Shown here: in pieces, positions 27,747 through 36,003 of the stretch | How the letters are laid out: the number at the start of each line of letters is the position of its first letter | How positions within the stretch are numbered: position 1 is the first letter of the stretch | Assembly: GCA_012646185.1 (NCBI GenBank) | Contig: GCA_012646185.1_4706.1 | Length of the DNA: 64,000 bases | Direction: 5' to 3' (one strand) | Origin: a phage | Notes under the pieces: model-generated | Seen by the model: only the letters and a program-made list of their open reading frames with translations | What the model was told of the DNA's origin: nothing | The model's database searches: none | Made by a program: the position numbers and the translations under genes

Positions 27747-28032
27747 GTTCTTTATCCTTTAATGCGTTTTCTAACCAGCGGACATAACTTTCACGATAAA
27801 GGTGAATGTGCCTTTTACCGTCGCGAAAGTTAGGGTCAATAAGATGAATCGCAGCATGGGTTGAAGTCATCGCATGCTGTAAATGTTTTCGTGTTAATCG
27901 CCCAAGTTTTACCCAACGTTGAATATACCGTGCGTCTGCCGCTAAACAGGTACGTTCATCGATGAAAGGTACCAATACCTGAACGATACTACCGTAATAC
28001 ACCATCGAACTGTTGAACATCTGCGTCTCCAT
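27739..28032 (-). CDS. hypothetical protein (97 aa)
   Basis: ORF, co-oriented, 8-nt overlap. Confidence 0.45.
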   Translation of the reverse strand: METQMFNSSMVYYGSIVQVLVPFIDERTCLAADARYIQRWVKLGRLTRKHLQHAMTSTHAAIHLIDPNFRDGKRHIHLYRESYVRWLENALKDKEHE

Positions 28033-28050
28033 GCAAATGGATGGGGCGGA

Positions 28051-28359
28051 TTAGTGAAGAATTACCGTTTGCGATCCGTTCTCGTATTCGGTAAGTAGCT
28101 CGTCGTACCGACGATCGACAGCCTTGATCGCATTATCGATCTCTGTCATGTCTGATGCAACAGATCGTTTCGCTTCCAGTCGATATACTAACGCATCACG
28201 CATACCCTCGGCTGCAGCGAGTTCGCAAGTTGCTTGATGTTTATTATCCGAAAAGACGAAGAATGGTTTGTTCTCTTCATCAGCCAAGAAGTAGTTACGA
28301 ATCTCAACCAACCTTTCATCTGGAACCAGTTCACAATTGTTTTCGTTCATTTTCATCAT
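28051..28359 (-). CDS. hypothetical protein (102 aa)
   Basis: ORF, co-oriented. Confidence 0.45.
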   Translation of the reverse strand: MMKMNENNCELVPDERLVEIRNYFLADEENKPFFVFSDNKHQATCELAAAEGMRDALVYRLEAKRSVASDMTEIDNAIKAVDRRYDELLTEYENGSQTVILH

Positions 28360-28364
28360 CTCTC

Positions 28365-28697
28365 TTAAAGTTTTAACGTATTGACGCCGCTTATAAAGGC
28401 GTTGATTTCATTGTCGATGTTACCGGTTTGCTCGATAATCTTCTCCACCATCAATCTTGGTTTGTTATAAGCGATACTTACAGCATCGGGACCATTCCCA
28501 TACATGCTCGCCACGTAAATTCGAAGTTCTTTTAAACGATCAAGTAACAACTGCGTGATTTCCAGAACTTCTTCTGTAGCGGTCTGTACGTTGCATTCGC
28601 GTAACTTGTGCTCTAACAGCGAAGTCGCAGCATCGAGCATGGATGTGTATTTACGATAGTTATAAATATCAATTATAGCTGTCTGATTCATATACAC
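28365..28697 (-). CDS. hypothetical protein (110 aa)
   Basis: ORF, co-oriented. Confidence 0.45.
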   Translation of the reverse strand: MYMNQTAIIDIYNYRKYTSMLDAATSLLEHKLRECNVQTATEEVLEITQLLLDRLKELRIYVASMYGNGPDAVSIAYNKPRLMVEKIIEQTGNIDNEINAFISGVNTLKL

Positions 28698-28702
28698 GTT
28701 GT

Positions 28703-29071
28703 TTATTTATCGGGGTCTGGAAAATAGTAAAATCGCCAATGCAACATAGAGATCGCATTTCTTATTCGATTCGCACGAACACGGCGTCCGAGAAAGGACT
28801 TATAGCAAGAATCGCAATCCATAAACAACTCATGGCTCGATTTCATCAGAACCACGATATCTCTTATATACGAATTGCAGTACTCGATAAACGGGTCTGT
28901 ATCGTACGTATATTTCCTCGCACTACCTATCCCCAACTCTCTATTTAACTCACGACAATTTATCATGAGCTTCACATAACGGATAAGCCGAACGAAGTCA
29001 CGTAAATTACGATTAAACCAATATCGATACCAAAATGACTGTATACTCCGAACAGTTCTATTTAACTTCAT
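28703..29071 (-). CDS. hypothetical protein (122 aa)
   Basis: ORF, co-oriented. Confidence 0.45.
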   Translation of the reverse strand: MKLNRTVRSIQSFWYRYWFNRNLRDFVRLIRYVKLMINCRELNRELGIGSARKYTYDTDPFIEYCNSYIRDIVVLMKSSHELFMDCDSCYKSFLGRRVRANRIRNAISMLHWRFYYFPDPDK

Positions 29072-29702
29072 TGATACCTTCTATTAGTTGTACAGCAACT
29101 TCTTTTTCGGTGCTATAAAAGAACTTGCGGTGGAACTGAACAAGAAGCTTTTCGAATTTACATTGAACGATCTTTTTGCGTTCGATGTGACCCAGGGAGA
29201 GCAAAGCACCCATGCAACGTACCGCTTGTTCGAGAACCTGTTTCGCGGTATCGTGATCGTCCGGTAACGGTAAATCTTCCTCGTCATCTTTAGCGATAAG
29301 ACGTCTAATGATGTTATCGATACGTATCTCATCACCGTTAATGAAAGCGCCTTTCTCCCATTCATCAAATCGTTGATGGATTCGACGTTGTAAGTTGGCT
29401 CTGTCTTCCATTAACTCTTTCAACTGGCTTTCTAAGCGGGATACGGTACGGCGGTCGGTATCAGTGAAGTTTTCCGATTCTTTGTACCACCAATCATTAC
29501 GTGCTTGTAAATCATTAATGCGAGAAATCGTCCGACGACACTCGTTAACAAACGCATCACCGTTCGATAGCTCCGTACCGAAATAGCATTTGTATTTATA
29601 ACGCATAACACGGATTAAACGTTTCGTTAGAAAACCTTGTTTCTCCAGTTTCTTCTTCAGTTGGGTGTATTTCTCTTCTTTTGTTTCCGCGATATCTTTC
29701 AT
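29058..29702 (-). CDS. hypothetical protein (214 aa), charged and helical in character
   Basis: ORF, co-oriented; K/E/R-rich. Confidence 0.5.
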   Translation of the reverse strand: MKDIAETKEEKYTQLKKKLEKQGFLTKRLIRVMRYKYKCYFGTELSNGDAFVNECRRTISRINDLQARNDWWYKESENFTDTDRRTVSRLESQLKELMEDRANLQRRIHQRFDEWEKGAFINGDEIRIDNIIRRLIAKDDEEDLPLPDDHDTAKQVLEQAVRCMGALLSLGHIERKKIVQCKFEKLLVQFHRKFFYSTEKEVAVQLIEGINEVK

Positions 29703-30049
29703 GCCATATTCTCCGTTATATGCTTTAAACTGTTGCGTATGCTTTTCAATCGATGGTTAAATCCGGAACGGTAACATTTCCGTACAACCCATGGCGCTCG
29801 CGCTTTATTCGCCTGATGAAGCTGTTCATTCACCTGCGACGCTATACGTAAACGCTCTAATAAAGACCTCAACCGAACGACAACCAACGGCTGTTCTTTC
29901 ACCTTCTCTAGTTTGAGTAAAGAGTCAATATGAAACTTTATATCGATAATCTGATTCCTGTTTTTGCGGTACTGATGAATATACCAGCATCGACGAAAAT
30001 AGGTGATGCTAAGCATAGGGTGGATCCTCTTCAACGCTATCTCCAACAA
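29699..30049 (-). CDS. hypothetical protein (116 aa)
   Basis: ORF, 4-nt overlap with neighbour. Confidence 0.45.
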   Translation of the reverse strand: MLEIALKRIHPMLSITYFRRCWYIHQYRKNRNQIIDIKFHIDSLLKLEKVKEQPLVVVRLRSLLERLRIASQVNEQLHQANKARAPWVVRKCYRSGFNHRLKSIRNSLKHITENMA

Positions 30050-30234
30050 TACATCGGATTAGGTGCTTTATGGCATTTATAAATACCTACTTTCTTCTGT
30101 CTACCTTTACCTGGGCCTCGTTTAACGCGTTTGTTATAAACACGACCCAAATATCGAGTGGCGATACATCGGGATGAATACACCGGGTCGATATATTCTA
30201 GCGTACCTGCTTCTGTCACTTCGAGACATTGCAT
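30037..30234 (-). CDS. hypothetical small basic protein (65 aa)
   Basis: Short ORF; weak support. Confidence 0.35.
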   Translation of the reverse strand: MQCLEVTEAGTLEYIDPVYSSRCIATRYLGRVYNKRVKRGPGKGRQKKVGIYKCHKAPNPMYCWR

Positions 30235-30260
30235 GCGTAACCTCTCTTTCCTCTAAAAAG

Positions 30261-30467
30261 TCAGTCTAACATAAGCCACGGCATCGCTTTCGCGATAGAA
30301 TCCACCGCAGCATTTGCGATCTTCCGTTCAGTCGTTGGTACCACATGCGCCACGAACCGTTTTCCTTTATTGCAACCTTTCTTGTGTTTTCCTTTGACTA
30401 AACGAACACCAATCATGTCGTTGATAACATGATTTAGTATATGGCGCTGTAGAGAATTAATCATCAC
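30261..30467 (-). CDS. hypothetical small basic protein (68 aa)
   Basis: Short ORF; weak support. Confidence 0.35.
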   Translation of the reverse strand: MMINSLQRHILNHVINDMIGVRLVKGKHKKGCNKGKRFVAHVVPTTERKIANAAVDSIAKAMPWLMLD

Positions 30468-30633
30468 TTTTACTCCAGGCAGAGAAGATTCTCGGTTTTA
30501 GTTCTATCTGTCCGCATATCCAGGTGTATCTCCATTTACCTTTACGAGGACCTTTCTTATTTTTAACACCTATCAGAATACGATAGGGATATGACCAAGC
30601 CATTCTAAACTCCTAAAATAAATCTCGATATTC

Positions 30634-30927
30634 TTAATGCAGTTGCTTCTTAAAACCTAATTTAAGAAGCGTCATTCTCTTGTCGATGGTATCTAATGCT
30701 TCCAGCAAGGATTTACGCTGCTCCTTTGTAAGCGTATCGACGCGTAGACGTTCGTTAATTTCCGCTTTAAGCTGTATAGGAAGGGTTTGTGTAAGTATGC
30801 TATCAGCCTCCATCTCGTAACTATTTTTCGGTGTGGGTAATGCTTCAGTAACACCAGTGAGATAAAAACCGATAGTGGTTACTCGTTCATCCATTGCTTC
30901 TAGCAGTTCAGAACTTACTTCATCCAC
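30634..30927 (-). CDS. hypothetical protein (~98 aa)
   Basis: Start set at GTG 30927 preceded by GGAGG; the track start at 30960 lies inside hairpin 30945-30962. Confidence 0.45.
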   Translation of the reverse strand: MDEVSSELLEAMDERVTTIGFYLTGVTEALPTPKNSYEMEADSILTQTLPIQLKAEINERLRVDTLTKEQRKSLLEALDTIDKRMTLLKLGFKKQLH

Positions 30928-30974
30928 GATAGTCCTCCGTATTAGGGTGGGCGTACCCACCCTCAGTTGTTAAT

Positions 30975-31994
30975 TTACACCGCCACCTTAGCCTTGATAG
31001 CGGGATGTGATTGATATCCAACAAACACAAAGTCTTCGTAACAGTAATCCGTAATACTTTCCGGTTTACGTACGATTGTTAGCTTCGGTAATGGGTACGG
31101 CTCACGGCTGAGCTGCTCTTTAACCTGTTCGAAGTGGTTGTGATAGATGTGGCAATCTCCACCCGTCCACACGAACTCACCAACGTCCATATTCAGCTGT
31201 TGGGCAAGCATATGCGTCAGCAGTGAATATGATGCGATGTTAAAGGGAGTCCCTAAAACTGTGTCCTGTGATCTTGCGAGTAGCATGCATGATAAGGCGC
31301 GTGTCGGTACGCTGTGTGTATTCAACCAAAGTTCCGTTTCACTGTGTCGTACATCATCCGTAACCCACTGGGTTCTTAACACATCGTTGCGTTGAACATA
31401 ATCAACGCGTTCATCGATAGTGAGTTCGTGAGTGTAGAACTGATAGAAACTGTGGCATGCTGACAGCGCCATATCGTCTAAATCACCAACGTTCCATGCG
31501 CTAACGATGATCCGTCGAGAATCAGGATCTTCTTTGAGTTGACGCATCACGTTTGCGATTTGGTCGTGGTGTTTAACATACAAGAGATGTTTGACCATAC
31601 CGGCGTCAACAACACCGCAATACTCATAACCACGTTGCATCAAAGTACGGGTACGTTCTGTATCATGCGGAACAACCACTTTGTAGTCAATCCATTCTCG
31701 CCATTGTCTGCCGTAAATCGGTCCTAGATTCCCTTCCTTATCAGCCCATTCATTCCAGATACGAACACCGTTATCTTGAAGATAAGCAACGTTCGTATCA
31801 CCATTAAGAAACCAGAGCAGTTCGTGGATAACGCTCTTAAGGTGAATCTTCTTGGTGGTTACCAGCGGGAATCCTTTCTTCAAGTCAAAACGCATTTGAC
31901 GTCCGAATACGGAACGGGTTCCGGTACCTGTGCGGTCGGCCTTATCGCGACCATTATCCATGATGTCTTGCAAAAGGTCCAAATACTGTTTCAT
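30975..31994 (-). CDS. thyA: thymidylate synthase (ThyA family) carrying two in-frame insertions
   Basis: Near-identical blocks to E. coli ThyA: [63 protein letters not shown] (catalytic Cys present), [41 protein letters not shown]; 339 aa versus ~264. Confidence 0.85.
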
Positions 31995-32194
31995 TTTAAT
32001 CCTCTAAGTGTTTCAAGTAGTTCCTGAAATTTATAACGATATTTAGGATTGCTTAACGTGTAGCAGCAGCCATGTACCACGTTATACGCGTAATCAACTT
32101 GTAAACCACGAACCTTCGGATCCAATGATAGATTCAACGGCGCATCATCAAAAATCCACGCTTCAATGTTCTTCTTGGATTCCTTCGTTAACAT
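31991..32194 (-). CDS. hypothetical protein (67 aa)
   Basis: Short ORF, 4-nt overlap with thyA. Confidence 0.4.
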
Positions 32195-32317
32195 CGTTTT
32201 TCACCTCGTCGTAAAAGTAAATAGAGTTTTGTCGAGACGCCCTAATTACTTACAACGTCGGTTCTCCCGGCTTCAGAGAATTCTTAAAATCCGTTAGTTT
32301 TGATAGATAGGGTAAGA

Positions 32318-32347
32318 CGGCATAAGAGCCTCCCATTACGGGAGGCT
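32318..32347 (-). promoter_or_regulatory. GC hairpin (agcctccc/gggaggct) followed on minus strand by CTTATGCCG box
   Basis: Arms 32327-32334 and 32340-32347; box identical to that at 17711-17719. Confidence 0.4.
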
Positions 32348-32359
32348 TCATTAATCGGC

Positions 32360-32908
32360 TTATTTCACAAGAACAGCGAATTCGAGAACATAAATAGCTT
32401 CATCGTCCATCGGATTTGTTGTGGTATAACCAGCGAAGCAATAGCCCATATCCACGATAAACTCGCTAAGTTTATCGATGACTGATGCCCCGATACGATC
32501 GTCAACAGACAGGCGACATTTACGGGTTATGTTTTGCCCGCGAGGAACGCCAGCTAACACGGATAGGAAATGTACGATCCGGTTATTGGTTGCGAACTGC
32601 ATGTAATCATCGTAGTACTTAAGGTCTTTCATCGCAGACTCTACCGTCATACGACGACCAGGTGACACATACTCAGAATAAGAATAAGCTGCGATCGTAC
32701 GACGATCTTCAGTAAGGTAAGTATTCCCTTCGGGATGATAACTCTCGACTGTTCCGTCTTCATGGGTGACGGTCACAACAGGTGCGCCGTACTCATCGCG
32801 ACCGAAATCAATTTTACATTTATCCGAAAGCGGTAGAACCGTACAAGGCTTTGCACTGTTCTCATCAGGGAGATCGTAACCACTCATCATTTTCAAGAAC
32901 ATAGACAT
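32360..32908 (-). CDS. hypothetical protein (182 aa), tandem paralog A
   Basis: Shares MSxFxKxM...D.N.AKP.T...F.RD..G.P...THED...TIAAYSYS pattern with 32993-33526. Confidence 0.55.
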   Translation of the reverse strand: MSMFLKMMSGYDLPDENSAKPCTVLPLSDKCKIDFGRDEYGAPVVTVTHEDGTVESYHPEGNTYLTEDRRTIAAYSYSEYVSPGRRMTVESAMKDLKYYDDYMQFATNNRIVHFLSVLAGVPRGQNITRKCRLSVDDRIGASVIDKLSEFIVDMGYCFAGYTTTNPMDDEAIYVLEFAVLVK

Positions 32909-32992
32909 AATAGAACCTCATGATAATAGATAATAGAAATGATAGATAGTACAACAAATTGAGGGGTATTATCCCACCCCTCGTAGGGATTA

Positions 32993-33526
32993 CTACTTAA
33001 CGATCGCGATGATTTTGCCACCCGCACCGGCGTAATATGCCGTTAACTTACCAGTAAACAACTCTTGTAAAAGACGATTTACGTTACTAACAAAATTAGG
33101 ATTGTCCGATTTTACAAAATCGATGTTTCGCGTTTGTTTTATATCACGATCGATTAAACGGATTTCCAACAACGCACAAATAAGGCGATCGTCGAGTTTA
33201 CCACTCGCATCCAGCACTTCCCCATACTTCGTAGCACGGACGTCCGCATACATACGGTCAACATCATCCTTCCCAAAACCACAGGAATAGGCATACGTTG
33301 CGATGGTGTTACCATTGTCCATCACATAAACGTTACCACCTGGGTAATCGATAAATCGTTGATCCTTATCACCATGAGTGACGAACTCCAGTGTCGGTCT
33401 ACCTAGTGAATCACGATTGAATTCGATAGTTGTCAAACGGTCAGGCACCACATGTAACGTAAACGGTTTTGCATTGTTACGATCGCTAGTATCGCAGTTA
33501 CCCATTACTTTTACGATAACACTCAT
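32993..33526 (-). CDS. hypothetical protein (177 aa), tandem paralog B
   Basis: Paralog of 32360-32908; AAGGAA before ATG. Confidence 0.55.
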   Translation of the reverse strand: MSVIVKVMGNCDTSDRNNAKPFTLHVVPDRLTTIEFNRDSLGRPTLEFVTHGDKDQRFIDYPGGNVYVMDNGNTIATYAYSCGFGKDDVDRMYADVRATKYGEVLDASGKLDDRLICALLEIRLIDRDIKQTRNIDFVKSDNPNFVSNVNRLLQELFTGKLTAYYAGAGGKIIAIVK

Positions 33527-33600
33527 GTTTTATTCCTTAGTAGTCCTAGTAGTAGTATTGAGGAATTTCACCTCATTAGATAGTCTATTTTGGTAATGTT

Positions 33601-33900
33601 TTACTGAAACAAGACATTAAATTCGACAAGATACCCATCGGATCTATCGCCCCGATAACGGTTGCAGAAAACACCGAATTTCATCAAGAACTCACATAGC
33701 TCTTCGGCTTTGTATAACGGAATACGATTTTCGTCGAGCAGAGGGCAACTATGGCTAACCCGCTCCGACGAATCAACGCAACACAAATAAAGAAGGAACC
33801 GAACAATAGCTCGGTTCTTAGTAAAGCTCTCGAATTCACCCACAGTTCTGAACTCATCGAGGAGCTTTGTCGTTTTCTTCAATCGTTCACGATCGAGCAT
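33601..33900 (-). CDS. hypothetical protein (99 aa)
   Basis: ORF with TGAGGT before ATG at 33900. Confidence 0.45.
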   Translation of the reverse strand: MLDRERLKKTTKLLDEFRTVGEFESFTKNRAIVRFLLYLCCVDSSERVSHSCPLLDENRIPLYKAEELCEFLMKFGVFCNRYRGDRSDGYLVEFNVLFQ

Positions 33901-33913
33901 GTTAACCTCAATA

Positions 33914-33954
33914 CGAACATAACCCTCCTCCTTCCCTTACGGGTTGGAGGAGGG
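33914..33954 (-). promoter_or_regulatory. extended GC hairpin (ccctcctcc/ggaggaggg with inner ccc/ggg stem) followed on minus strand by TTATGTTCG
   Basis: Inverted repeat 33923-33931/33946-33954; the following ATG is out of frame with the downstream gene. Confidence 0.4.
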
Positions 33955-33963
33955 GATATACTG

Positions 33964-34278
33964 TTATTCTGTTTTCGGTGTTGAACCGTTCTTCTTGAAG
34001 TCGGATTCGTATTTCACGTTAGAATCGAGAACCTCACGAACGGTTTTATCTGTACAACCACGGGCGACGTATGCATTAAGATCGTCGCGTAATTTACGCA
34101 TCGTTGTTTTATCCGCATCAGAAACATCTGACTTGGTAAGACGGAATGCAATTGCATCACGAACTTTATTCAGCGTTGCTGGATTATTACGCTGCTCTGC
34201 AAATACCGCTTTGATGAATGTACCGCTATCTTTCGAAGCGATGGCTGCATCAAGAATTTCAATATGCTTTTCAGACAT
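33964..34278 (-). CDS. hypothetical protein (104 aa)
   Basis: ORF, co-oriented. Confidence 0.45.
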   Translation of the reverse strand: MSEKHIEILDAAIASKDSGTFIKAVFAEQRNNPATLNKVRDAIAFRLTKSDVSDADKTTMRKLRDDLNAYVARGCTDKTVREVLDSNVKYESDFKKNGSTPKTE

Positions 34279-34329
34279 CTTCTTTCCTTTAATAAACGAT
34301 CATCGTCATATTCATTGCGCAGGATGCTA

Positions 34330-35655
34330 TCACTTCAAAAGCTTAGACACCGCCATGCTTCGCGCCATCGCAACGTCATACGCATCCATGATCGCGTCAC
34401 CGATAGCGGTATGACGGATCAACGGAATACCCATATCTGGATACTCTTTGGTGCCTAAGATGGATACCGGTTTGTCTTGATACGCGGCAACCATCGAACG
34501 AATATCCTGAACCTGGTTATAACGGCAGATTGGTTTGAAGCCCGCTTTACGGAACCAATGCTCTAATTGCGGCCAATCTGTTTCACCACGAGCAAGATAA
34601 TAGAAGGTATCTTTACCGTAGTATTCGGTCATTTTGTCACGAATACTGTTGACGAACGCATTTACTTCGGCGATGGCTTCTTTATAACCCATTGCCTTAC
34701 AATGTTGAAAACAATAGTCGCGCGCTTCCTTTGGTGCTTTGGTTTGCCACCATTCTACTGTTGATTCACTGATACGACCACCGTCAGCGATTTGACCATG
34801 AACGTCAGGGAAGATATCTATACGCGGACCGTTAACAATGGATTCTGGATTAGCCAGATCGAAGAACACGATACCGATTTCCAGCAATACTCCATTCTTT
34901 TCCAGACTAAGGTTTTCAACATCTAAACAAAATGCGGGCTTCTCTACCGCTAACGGCTCGAACGAATGGTTGCTGGTATCCGATTCGGTTTTAAGTTCGA
35001 CGACAGCCGGATCGGTATCCGTAGGTTTCAGTTCTACTACAGCATCATCGAGTCCCGATAACGAAAAATAGTCTTCGAAGAAATCGGATATCGTCATACC
35101 ATGCAAATTGATATCGCAATCTTCCAACCATTGCTTCAACTGGTGCTCACCGGCATGAATCGCTAAACGGCACGGTCCGGAACGATCATCTAGCGCTGCA
35201 TCGATCCAGAAGAAAGCGCGTATAAGTAAGTAAGGATTATACTCCGCGATGATTTCTTGGCTAGCCGAGAAATCGTACACCATTAGTTGTATTATTCCCT
35301 TACGCGTGTTATACGGATCAACTTTCAATCGACGCACTATTTCTTCTACGAATTCCAACGCGCGCGTGTACGAGGTGGACCCACCTTGTTCATACGAACA
35401 TATACCCGTCAAAAGTTCCTTATAGGACGCATATGGAACCATAGGCGATAATTTGTACGACAGTTCAGTATTGTAATTATCGCATAATTTCTTCGGGGCG
35501 ATAGCATCCTGTATCGCTGTAATAAACGCCGGTCCATCAATATCAAACAACCATCCTTGACGCCGGTATGCAGTGTACCGTAATAACGCACCGATAACTG
35601 CCTGGGGCGGTGTATATTCTTTCCCGTTAATTTCAAACAGTAGTTTGCTCATCAT
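34330..35655 (-). CDS. protein with C-terminal DEDDh 3'-5' exonuclease domain (DnaQ/RNase T-like) and unknown N-terminal domain
   Basis: Exo I-like FCLDVENLSL, central YYLARGETDW, Exo III-like HTAIGDAIMDAYDV in the C-terminal ~190 aa. Confidence 0.6.
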   Translation of the reverse strand: MMSKLLFEINGKEYTPPQAVIGALLRYTAYRRQGWLFDIDGPAFITAIQDAIAPKKLCDNYNTELSYKLSPMVPYASYKELLTGICSYEQGGSTSYTRALEFVEEIVRRLKVDPYNTRKGIIQLMVYDFSASQEIIAEYNPYLLIRAFFWIDAALDDRSGPCRLAIHAGEHQLKQWLEDCDINLHGMTISDFFEDYFSLSGLDDAVVELKPTDTDPAVVELKTESDTSNHSFEPLAVEKPAFCLDVENLSLEKNGVLLEIGIVFFDLANPESIVNGPRIDIFPDVHGQIADGGRISESTVEWWQTKAPKEARDYCFQHCKAMGYKEAIAEVNAFVNSIRDKMTEYYGKDTFYYLARGETDWPQLEHWFRKAGFKPICRYNQVQDIRSMVAAYQDKPVSILGTKEYPDMGIPLIRHTAIGDAIMDAYDVAMARSMAVSKLLK

Positions 35656-35667
35656 AACACCTTTTCA

Positions 35668-36003
35668 TTATTCTGGTTTATCTGTTGTCAGGCCGAGTCC
35701 GGTCAATATCACGTAATCATACCACGCTTTTACTTCTGCTTTCGCTTCATCTAAACTGAATGCGTTGATGTGCGGAAACTCATCGTTGACTGGGAAAGGT
35801 AAATCGCAGTCGTAGCTTGTATCGTCTTTCCAACCTTTCCATTCGATCGTTAGGGAACCAAAAACGGTCTCAGCGACAACATGATTATAGCGACAGTTTT
35901 CACACGGTGCGTGCTCTTCCGACCACACAAGCTCATGCTGCGCTAAAAGTTGTTGTACAACCGATAATGGTTGCTCTTCATTAAGTTCGATACTGTCTAT
36001 CAT
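35668..36003 (-). CDS. hypothetical protein (111 aa)
   Basis: ORF, co-oriented. Confidence 0.45.
   Translation of the reverse strand: MIDSIELNEEQPLSVVQQLLAQHELVWSEEHAPCENCRYNHVVAETVFGSLTIEWKGWKDDTSYDCDLPFPVNDEFPHINAFSLDEAKAEVKAWYDYVILTGLGLTTDKPE

Follow-up and report, generated by a model that had tools for sequence, protein, structure and literature searches.

The stretch of DNA analysed here (64,000 nucleotides, contig GCA_012646185.1_4706.1 of assembly GCA_012646185.1; hereafter the window) carries at positions 30975–31994, on the minus strand, a thyA-type thymidylate synthase (TS) gene of 339 codons plus stop, with an ATG start and a GAGGA ribosome-binding site 7 nt upstream. All other window features given below are also on the minus strand. 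The gene is the orthologue of gp141 of Escherichia phage vB_EcoM_Goslar (NC_048170), a nucleus-forming jumbo phage with a genome of 237 kb. The 8 kb around thyA (window positions 28000–36000) are 95% identical to Goslar over 91%, and the two TS proteins share 98.2% of their amino acids; the window thus derives from a Goslar-like nucleus-forming jumbo phage. The Goslar annotation of gp141 is thymidylate synthase only, and the genome paper names it solely as a putative thymidylate synthase. A literature search found no study of gp141 or of the insertions described here.

The start codon of thyA overlaps (ATGA) with the stop codon of a 67-aa ORF (31991–32194; Goslar gp142, hypothetical), an arrangement that suggests translational coupling. 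At other loci that carry the second of the two insertions (INS2, see below), no homologue of this ORF was found beside thyA. Just upstream of thyA stand two adjacent paralogues of 182 aa (32360–32908) and 177 aa (32993–33526), which are 40% identical over their first ∼ 80 residues (E = 8e-14) and whose Goslar orthologues are labelled 'hypothetical'; the ORF at 33601–33900 may have the same C-terminal motif.

Pfam family PF00303 covers the thyA product end to end (E = 2.5e-112, 374.8 bits versus a threshold of 24.3) and is the sole Pfam match in the 339 residues, no second domain being found. The NCBIfam thyA equivalogs are passed (NF002499, 410.4 versus a cut-off of 405; NF002497, 410.1 versus 327), TIGR03284 scores 351.4 (cut-off 108.35), and PHROG 160 (thymidylate synthase) is matched. 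The protein is 66% identical to Escherichia coli ThyA (264 aa; PDB 2TSC, 1TYS) over aligned columns, and Foldseek gives its model a TM-score of 0.95 to that enzyme, normalised to the target.

Alignment with the E. coli ThyA structures (phmmer) pairs residues 1–101 with E. coli (Ec) 1–101, 141–188 with Ec 107–154 and 233–339 with Ec 158–264. The first of the two insertions, INS1 (residues 102–140; 31575–31691), follows the helix YGRQWREW at Ec 101–107 and has 39 residues in place of five (net +34). The second, INS2 (residues 189–232; 31299–31430), has 44 residues in place of the three-residue turn A155-D-G157 (net +41) of the β-hairpin that joins the strand of the catalytic Cys to the LSCxLYQRS strand. 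The first-pass annotation had estimated an excess of about 75 aa, which proves exact, and had located it after GRQWREW (residues 95–101) and between FYQFY (183–187) and RSQDTVLG (241–248), where both insertions are indeed found. An AlphaFold2 monomer prediction based on a 40-sequence alignment (mean pLDDT 94.6, pTM 0.92) folds both inserts, mostly with pLDDT > 90. INS1 is predicted as a β-α-β-β unit (strand 101–107, helix 112–120, strands 124–130 and 135–143). INS2 is predicted as three helices (193–202, 204–212 and 217–226, pLDDT above 90), and the strands on either side of it are lengthened (181–190 and 232–244). The idea that INS1 and INS2 are duplicates of one another was rejected, as they show no similarity.

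Codon differences from Goslar are predominantly synonymous throughout the gene (synonymous:nonsynonymous 5:1 in INS1, 5:1 in INS2 and 34:4 in the core), a pattern that indicates purifying selection on both inserts in the same manner as on the core. The protein sequence of both is also conserved in distant homologues. Together with the ordered fold, the missing Rfam intron and the missing repeats, these data uphold the earlier view that the inserts are in-frame protein insertions and not an intron. An origin as remnants of an intron, an intein or in-frame mobile repeats, or as an assembly artefact, would find some support in T4 td, the classic case of an intron in a TS gene, and in related phages whose TS is split shortly after INS2 by a GIY-YIG endonuclease element. 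We regard such an origin as the most improbable of the explanations weighed in this work. Group I and II introns are longer than the 117 and 132 nt of the inserts, the Rfam search for an intron returned merely a sub-threshold 5S noise match, and the protein contains no intein or endonuclease Pfam domain. The DNA of INS1 and INS2 has no second copy in the window and no flanking direct or inverted repeats or duplications of note, its GC content resembles that of the rest of thyA, its codons are under purifying selection, and the identical architecture recurs in independently sequenced genomes.

The split genes differ in this respect from the uninterrupted Goslar-type and window genes. In Pseudomonas phage SL2 (locus L002, 301–2427) a GIY-YIG homing-endonuclease ORF splits TS just downstream of the INS2 region, and in Erwinia phage RisingSun (L004, 547–2577) TS is split by a GIY-YIG ORF that is followed by a second 'thymidylate synthase' CDS; both splits look like an intron of the T4 td/I-TevI type. 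At seven IMG/VR loci (L021, L030, L034, L039, L044, L053 and L074) the INS2-type ORFs span only ∼ 80–156 of the 264 core positions although they lie inside long contigs, which suggests that TS genes interrupted by introns or endonucleases are common in the INS2 phage lineage.

The close match to ThyA in the catalytic blocks, active-site Cys included, was borne out in full. Residues R21, E58, W80, W83, Y94, R160, R161, C180, R241, S242, D244, N252, D280, H282 and Y284 are invariant in the alignments. The nucleophile Cys180 (Ec C146; invariant in two alignments) lies in the active-site motif A-C-H (31452–31460). The general-base network, examined in E. coli numbering as E58, Y94, H147 and D169, is present together with the catalytic Cys, since C180, H181 (of ACH), E58, Y94 and D244 are invariant or nearly so. 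The dUMP phosphate site is intact (R21, R241, R160, R161 and S242, corresponding to Ec R21, R166, R126′/R127′ and S167); of these, the Arg pair R160/R161 (Ec R126/R127; both invariant) belongs to the DSRR loop (31512–31523), which enters the active site of the partner subunit. The set that shields folate and the active site from solvent is kept as well, namely W80 and W83 in IWNEW and the C-terminal tail KAKVAV (30978–30995), which is in register with E. coli KAPVAI in an alignment that reaches the last residue. In ThyA this tail closes the active site for hydride transfer. The motif PFNIASY (31227–31247) contains the invariant Asn252 (Ec N177), the residue that sets specificity for dUMP versus dCMP, and its retention indicates that the enzyme is not dCMP-specific. 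The assignment best supported by the sequence is a catalytically canonical ThyA-type thymidylate synthase that would convert dUMP and 5,10-methylene-THF to dTMP and DHF, and, by analogy, the protein is predicted to be a homodimer with shared active sites.

The first-pass annotation had proposed that the inserts could alter substrate or product, as in the hydroxymethylase relatives of ThyA; this proposal finds no support, the catalytic residues and the tail being kept. In its full form it would make the protein a pyrimidine hydroxymethylase or modified-nucleotide synthase and predict phage DNA with 5-hydroxymethyl-dU or a derivative. TS-fold hydroxymethylases do exist in phages within PF00303; T4 dCMP hydroxymethylase (gp42) and the CMP hydroxymethylase MilA have both the fold and the Pfam family in common with the query. 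The dUMP hydroxymethylases of the SPO1 gp29 type keep the specificity Asn and hydrate the exocyclic methylene intermediate, and they are usually accompanied by an hmdUMP kinase or a hypermodification pathway as well as by modified DNA; the 66% identity of the query to E. coli ThyA speaks indirectly against this type. INS2 lies near an active site, though that of the partner, and the YQRS sequence beside the specificity Asn is changed in the query (LLARS). However, W80, W83, Y94 and the full C-terminal tail, which serve solvent exclusion and hydride transfer, are retained, the thyA equivalog cut-offs are passed, and an enzyme that bears INS1 is the essential TS of Burkholderia. Goslar encodes a thymidylate kinase (annotation of the first 50 kb), and its genomic DNA is cut by several restriction enzymes according to the genome paper. 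We therefore consider an altered product highly improbable; for annotation purposes the gene should be read as an ordinary dTMP synthase and not as evidence for modified DNA. Membership in the dCMP/CMP hydroxymethylase class was rejected: the query shows neither an Asp at the specificity site nor a truncated or absent C-terminal lid, and its structure is not closer to the hydroxymethylases than to TS.

The altered stretch itself varies among relatives. Residues 237–240 of the query are MLLA (31254–31265), directly before R241-S242, such that E. coli YQRS reads LARS, with L for Ec Y164 and A for Q165; SPN3US-like enzymes have MMRS at this place. At the position of Ec Q165, which adjoins the specificity Asn, 144 INS2 carriers have Q in 112 cases, M in 23 and A in 4.

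A TS–GFP fusion of a related phage was excluded from the phage nucleus, and TS therefore probably works in the cytoplasm of the infected cell, where it would supply dTMP. A tblastn search with E. coli FolA found no dihydrofolate reductase within the 64-kb window, and folate may be recycled by the host or through a phage gene outside the window.

INS1 has a structural precedent. The same module belongs to the ThyA of Burkholderia thailandensis (BTH_I1680, PDB 3V8H), an essential chromosomal enzyme, and is therefore compatible with ordinary TS function. Only this module is common to the two enzymes beyond the TS core: they are 37% identical overall, 3V8H lacks INS2 and has ∼ 2 residues at the hairpin, and W83, kept in the query, is replaced in 3V8H. 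The query does not belong to the Burkholderia-type ThyA family (NF010393/PRK13821), which it matches with 215.9 bits versus a cut-off of 576. The depositors of 3V8H noted 'large subdomain differences' among the TSs of several species but did not describe them. The TS of Lactobacillus casei (316 aa) and the eukaryotic TSs, the classic examples of TS insertions, show that ordered insertions around the small domain, at whose edge INS1 would also lie, leave catalysis unchanged; in contrast to the query, they have no insertion in the 155–157 hairpin. Eukaryotic TSs reportedly have an 8-residue insert at the INS1 site. The L. casei-type insertion of ∼ 50 residues at Ec ∼ 83–90 (site A below), which separates the W80/W83 helix from the Y94 helix, is absent from the query (hmmalign).

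To place the two inserts within the family, 1.84 billion cluster representatives were searched with HMMER, which gave 16,048 ThyA-family matches, and the best 150 of the 16,048 were aligned to the E. coli ThyA model. Insertions concentrate at Ec ∼ 83–87 (site A), ∼ 101–109 (site B, that of INS1), 138/139 and ∼ 152–158 (site C, that of INS2). Aligned to E. coli ThyA with hmmalign, the query has inserts only after Ec 101–106 and 153–158, and site A is empty. The 113 complete sequences from these best 150 show all possible combinations of A, B and C (a dash denotes an insertion of < 20 aa at that site): the query's architecture, -BC, in 24, --C in 25, A-C in 15, ABC in 17, -B- in 9, A-- in 4, AB- in a single case and no insertion (---) in 18, proportions that describe a sample biased to query-like sequences and are no population estimate. 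Median lengths in the aligned ThyAs are 41–42 for INS2 and 32 for INS1, and the Goslar-type lengths are thus typical. The alignments indicate that the two-insert architecture is a trait of the family and not a peculiarity of this gene. At the IMG/VR loci L012–L085 inserts at sites A and B are almost mutually exclusive (A-C 26, -BC 19, ABC 2), which hints that their spaces overlap or that both serve one function from the two sides of the small domain; among the metagenomic representatives the exclusivity is weaker (ABC 17).

This breadth bears on the objection that the first-pass annotation itself foresaw, namely that the extra residues are ordinary loop-length variation. The objection largely holds, since the same two insertions occur in many ThyAs, although they are conserved folded modules and not the product of random drift. 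Inserts of many lengths and in every combination at Ec 83–87, 101–109, 138–139 and 152–158, as well as the poorly conserved middle of INS2, would fit tolerated expansions of permissive surface loops, which are inherited and kept only because their removal would destabilise the fold. The small-domain insert of L. casei at site A is known to be dispensable. Yet the length of INS2 is tightly distributed (median 41–42), its fold is ordered at high confidence in the AlphaFold2 model, a patch of the core (Ec 192–195) has changed along with it, and two of its residues, R196 (94%) and P230 (97%), approach the catalytic level of conservation among sequences that are only 41–65% identical. Neutral expansion is accordingly an unlikely account, albeit one we rate above an altered product and a non-protein element in plausibility and below the recruitment of partner proteins discussed further on.

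The true family of the window enzyme is formed by the TSs of the nucleus-forming (phiKZ-like, Chimalliviridae) and SPN3US-like jumbo phages, which have the same two-insert architecture and are 55–61% identical over the full length. Full-length matches in this range (tblastn; 339–353 aa) come from SPN3US-like Salmonella, Erwinia, Cronobacter and Proteus jumbo phages, and relatives with both inserts include the TSs of 201phi2-1 (B3FJL1), SPN3US, Erwinia phage Caitlin and Cronobacter phage CR5. Some members, such as the TSs of 201phi2-1 (457 aa) and LucasX (390 aa), are longer than the query and contain further insertions. INS2 is shared structurally with 201phi2-1 TS (BFVD, TMq 0.91), whereas structure searches of the PDB found no counterpart of it.

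Conservation within INS2 was assessed over 144 distinct carriers with sequences 41–65% identical. The module is entered through ELTIDER (residues 190–196, 31407–31427; consensus E-[LMI]-[TS]-x-x-E-R) and left through LNTHSVPTR (residues 224–232, 31299–31325; consensus L-D-x-x-[GN]-[IV]-P-x-R). In the entry anchor R196 is found in 135 carriers (94%), E195 in 122 (85%), L, M or I at 191 in 133 (92%) and T or S at 192 in 119 (83%). The exit anchor has P230 in 140 (97%), I or V at 229 in 124 (86%), R232 in 101 (70%) and D225 in 97 (67%), with N in its place in 11. The base of INS2 is thus nearly as conserved as the active site among these carriers. Residues 197–222 differ among carriers in both sequence and length and have a high content of Asp and Glu; Goslar-type INS2 has nine acidic and five basic residues.

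The presence of INS2 is coupled to a change in the core. The Jensen–Shannon divergence between INS2-bearing and INS2-lacking ThyAs is highest at Ec 194 (0.51), followed by Ec 195, 193 and 192, a co-variation which may be partly phylogenetic. Ec 194 is M in 100 of 129 INS2-bearing sequences as opposed to L in 24 of 33 that lack the module, and the four positions read C-D-L-E in E. coli, V/T-N-M-V/A in carriers and LNMD in the query (residues 267–270, 31185–31196). Judging from the topology of the sheet, the 192–195 loop should abut the 155–158 hairpin, which suggests that INS2 packs on the 192–195 loop of its own subunit; the LNMD patch is a probable packing surface.

Human TS allows the insertion point to be placed relative to the partner subunit. 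Crystallography of that enzyme puts Y202 (Ec Y153, query Y187) at the perimeter of the subunit interface, and Y187 is located one residue before INS2. Y202 contacts D173, D174 and R175 of its own chain, which belong to the arm whose Arg pair is given to the partner's active site, and K47′, T55′ and D254′ of the partner, in the region of the phosphate-binding loop; its pocket is filled by F59′ of the partner. By this geometry INS2 would leave its subunit at the edge of the interface, next to the dUMP-phosphate site of the partner, and not on a remote surface. By analogy with the same contacts, the DSRR loop is a likely spatial neighbour of the insertion point. We infer the placement of INS2 from these human contacts and from the sheet topology.

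We propose, with a probability of roughly 55%, that the protein is a canonical ThyA with two folded modules, of which INS2 reinforces the interface between the subunits next to the partner's site for the dUMP phosphate. The 75 extra residues would then be two independent and ancient folded surface modules on an E. coli-like core. INS2 would be a three-helix module of the phage lineage by which both central strands of the dimer-interface sheet are lengthened. It would be stapled at its base by the near-invariant E195/R196 on entry and by D225, P230 and R232 on exit, with a variable and acidic outer part. Its insertion point would adjoin both the R126/R127 arm of its own subunit and the phosphate-binding (R21′) loop of the partner. 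Packed on its own 192–195 loop, INS2 could support the interface together with that half of the active site which is formed across subunits, and its effect would be on stability or on a tuned communication between subunits rather than on new chemistry.

INS2 is essentially restricted to phages, as far as sequence searches can tell. The Goslar module is detectable by sequence in 54 phage records, all of them from jumbo phages (Goslar, SPN3US-like, Erwinia, CR5, phiKZ-like Pseudomonas, BRkr, LucasX and SA002). Species-representative genomes of bacteria and archaea (596 Gb) gave six contigs, all from metagenome-assembled genomes (MAGs), with a degenerate DNA probe of the entry motif FQFY[TS]xE[LMI][ST]xxER, for which ∼ 1–2 chance matches are expected in this genome set; being narrow, the probe would miss a cellular INS2 with another entry motif. 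The same probe hit 74 IMG/VR contigs, many of 200–430 kb, and nearly all of these matches are genuine ThyA genes with an INS2 of 20–58 aa. One long probe-positive 'bacterial' contig looks like a binned phage, since its thyA is flanked by ORFans that have PHROG matches only.

This distribution invites an explanation in line with the protein interactions that the first-pass annotation had envisaged for the inserts. The chemistry would be unchanged, and INS2, with or without INS1, would be a docking surface for other phage proteins through which TS joins a complex for dNTP synthesis or the outer face of the nucleus shell, so that the modules serve localisation or substrate channelling. The phage restriction (74 IMG/VR versus six MAG contigs) and the enrichment of INS2 in nucleus-forming jumbo phages point in this direction, and the acidic outer part, variable in sequence and length, is what a lineage-specific interaction surface would look like. 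Surface insertions of T4 TS have reportedly been proposed as protein-interaction sites. On the other hand, no gene neighbour is common to the window and ∼ 80 other INS2-type loci, which leaves no conserved candidate partner in the vicinity; the near-invariant residues lie at the base of the module rather than on its exposed part, a pattern that favours a structural staple over a conserved binding epitope; and INS2 occurs in very diverse phages, including on small contigs, for which one common partner is unlikely. We regard docking as possible but doubtful, though the foremost of the rivals to our proposal. A bolder and equally tentative variant assigns INS2 an active part: it might define a phage-specific class of ThyA, either as a three-helix arm that extends to the nucleotide-binding loop of the partner and acts there as a cross-subunit lid or an allosteric element, or as a dock that holds dTMP synthesis at a phage dNTP factory by the phage nucleus. 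Were either of these to hold, giant phages could regulate or localise their thymidylate supply in a way that cellular enzymes lack.

The new element is INS2, a conserved, structurally uncharacterised and essentially phage-specific module at a functionally sensitive place of the enzyme; INS1 was already present in the solved Burkholderia structure. TS is among the most studied enzymes and a drug target, and its solved structures have a turn of 2–3 residues where INS2 has 44. The module also directs attention to the subunit interface, the region targeted by destabilisers of the human TS dimer. Its carriers include nucleus-forming jumbo phages, which are used as models in cell biology and as candidates for therapy, and through INS2 phage-type thyA can be cleanly recognised by sequence in metagenomes and MAGs.

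Metagenomes also contain variants of the window TS, namely a cluster of 464 sequences with 94% identity and a variant on a 248-kb contig with 90%. Together with the 91% coverage by Goslar, they establish that several distinct Goslar-like phages exist beyond the single described isolate. Hundreds of near-identical SPN3US-like TSs (proteins P0004–P0120) are labelled Salmonella, E. coli or Shigella at NCBI, on contigs of ∼ 220–240 kb; these entries appear to stem from jumbo-phage genomes that are carried in, or contaminate, assemblies of bacterial isolates.
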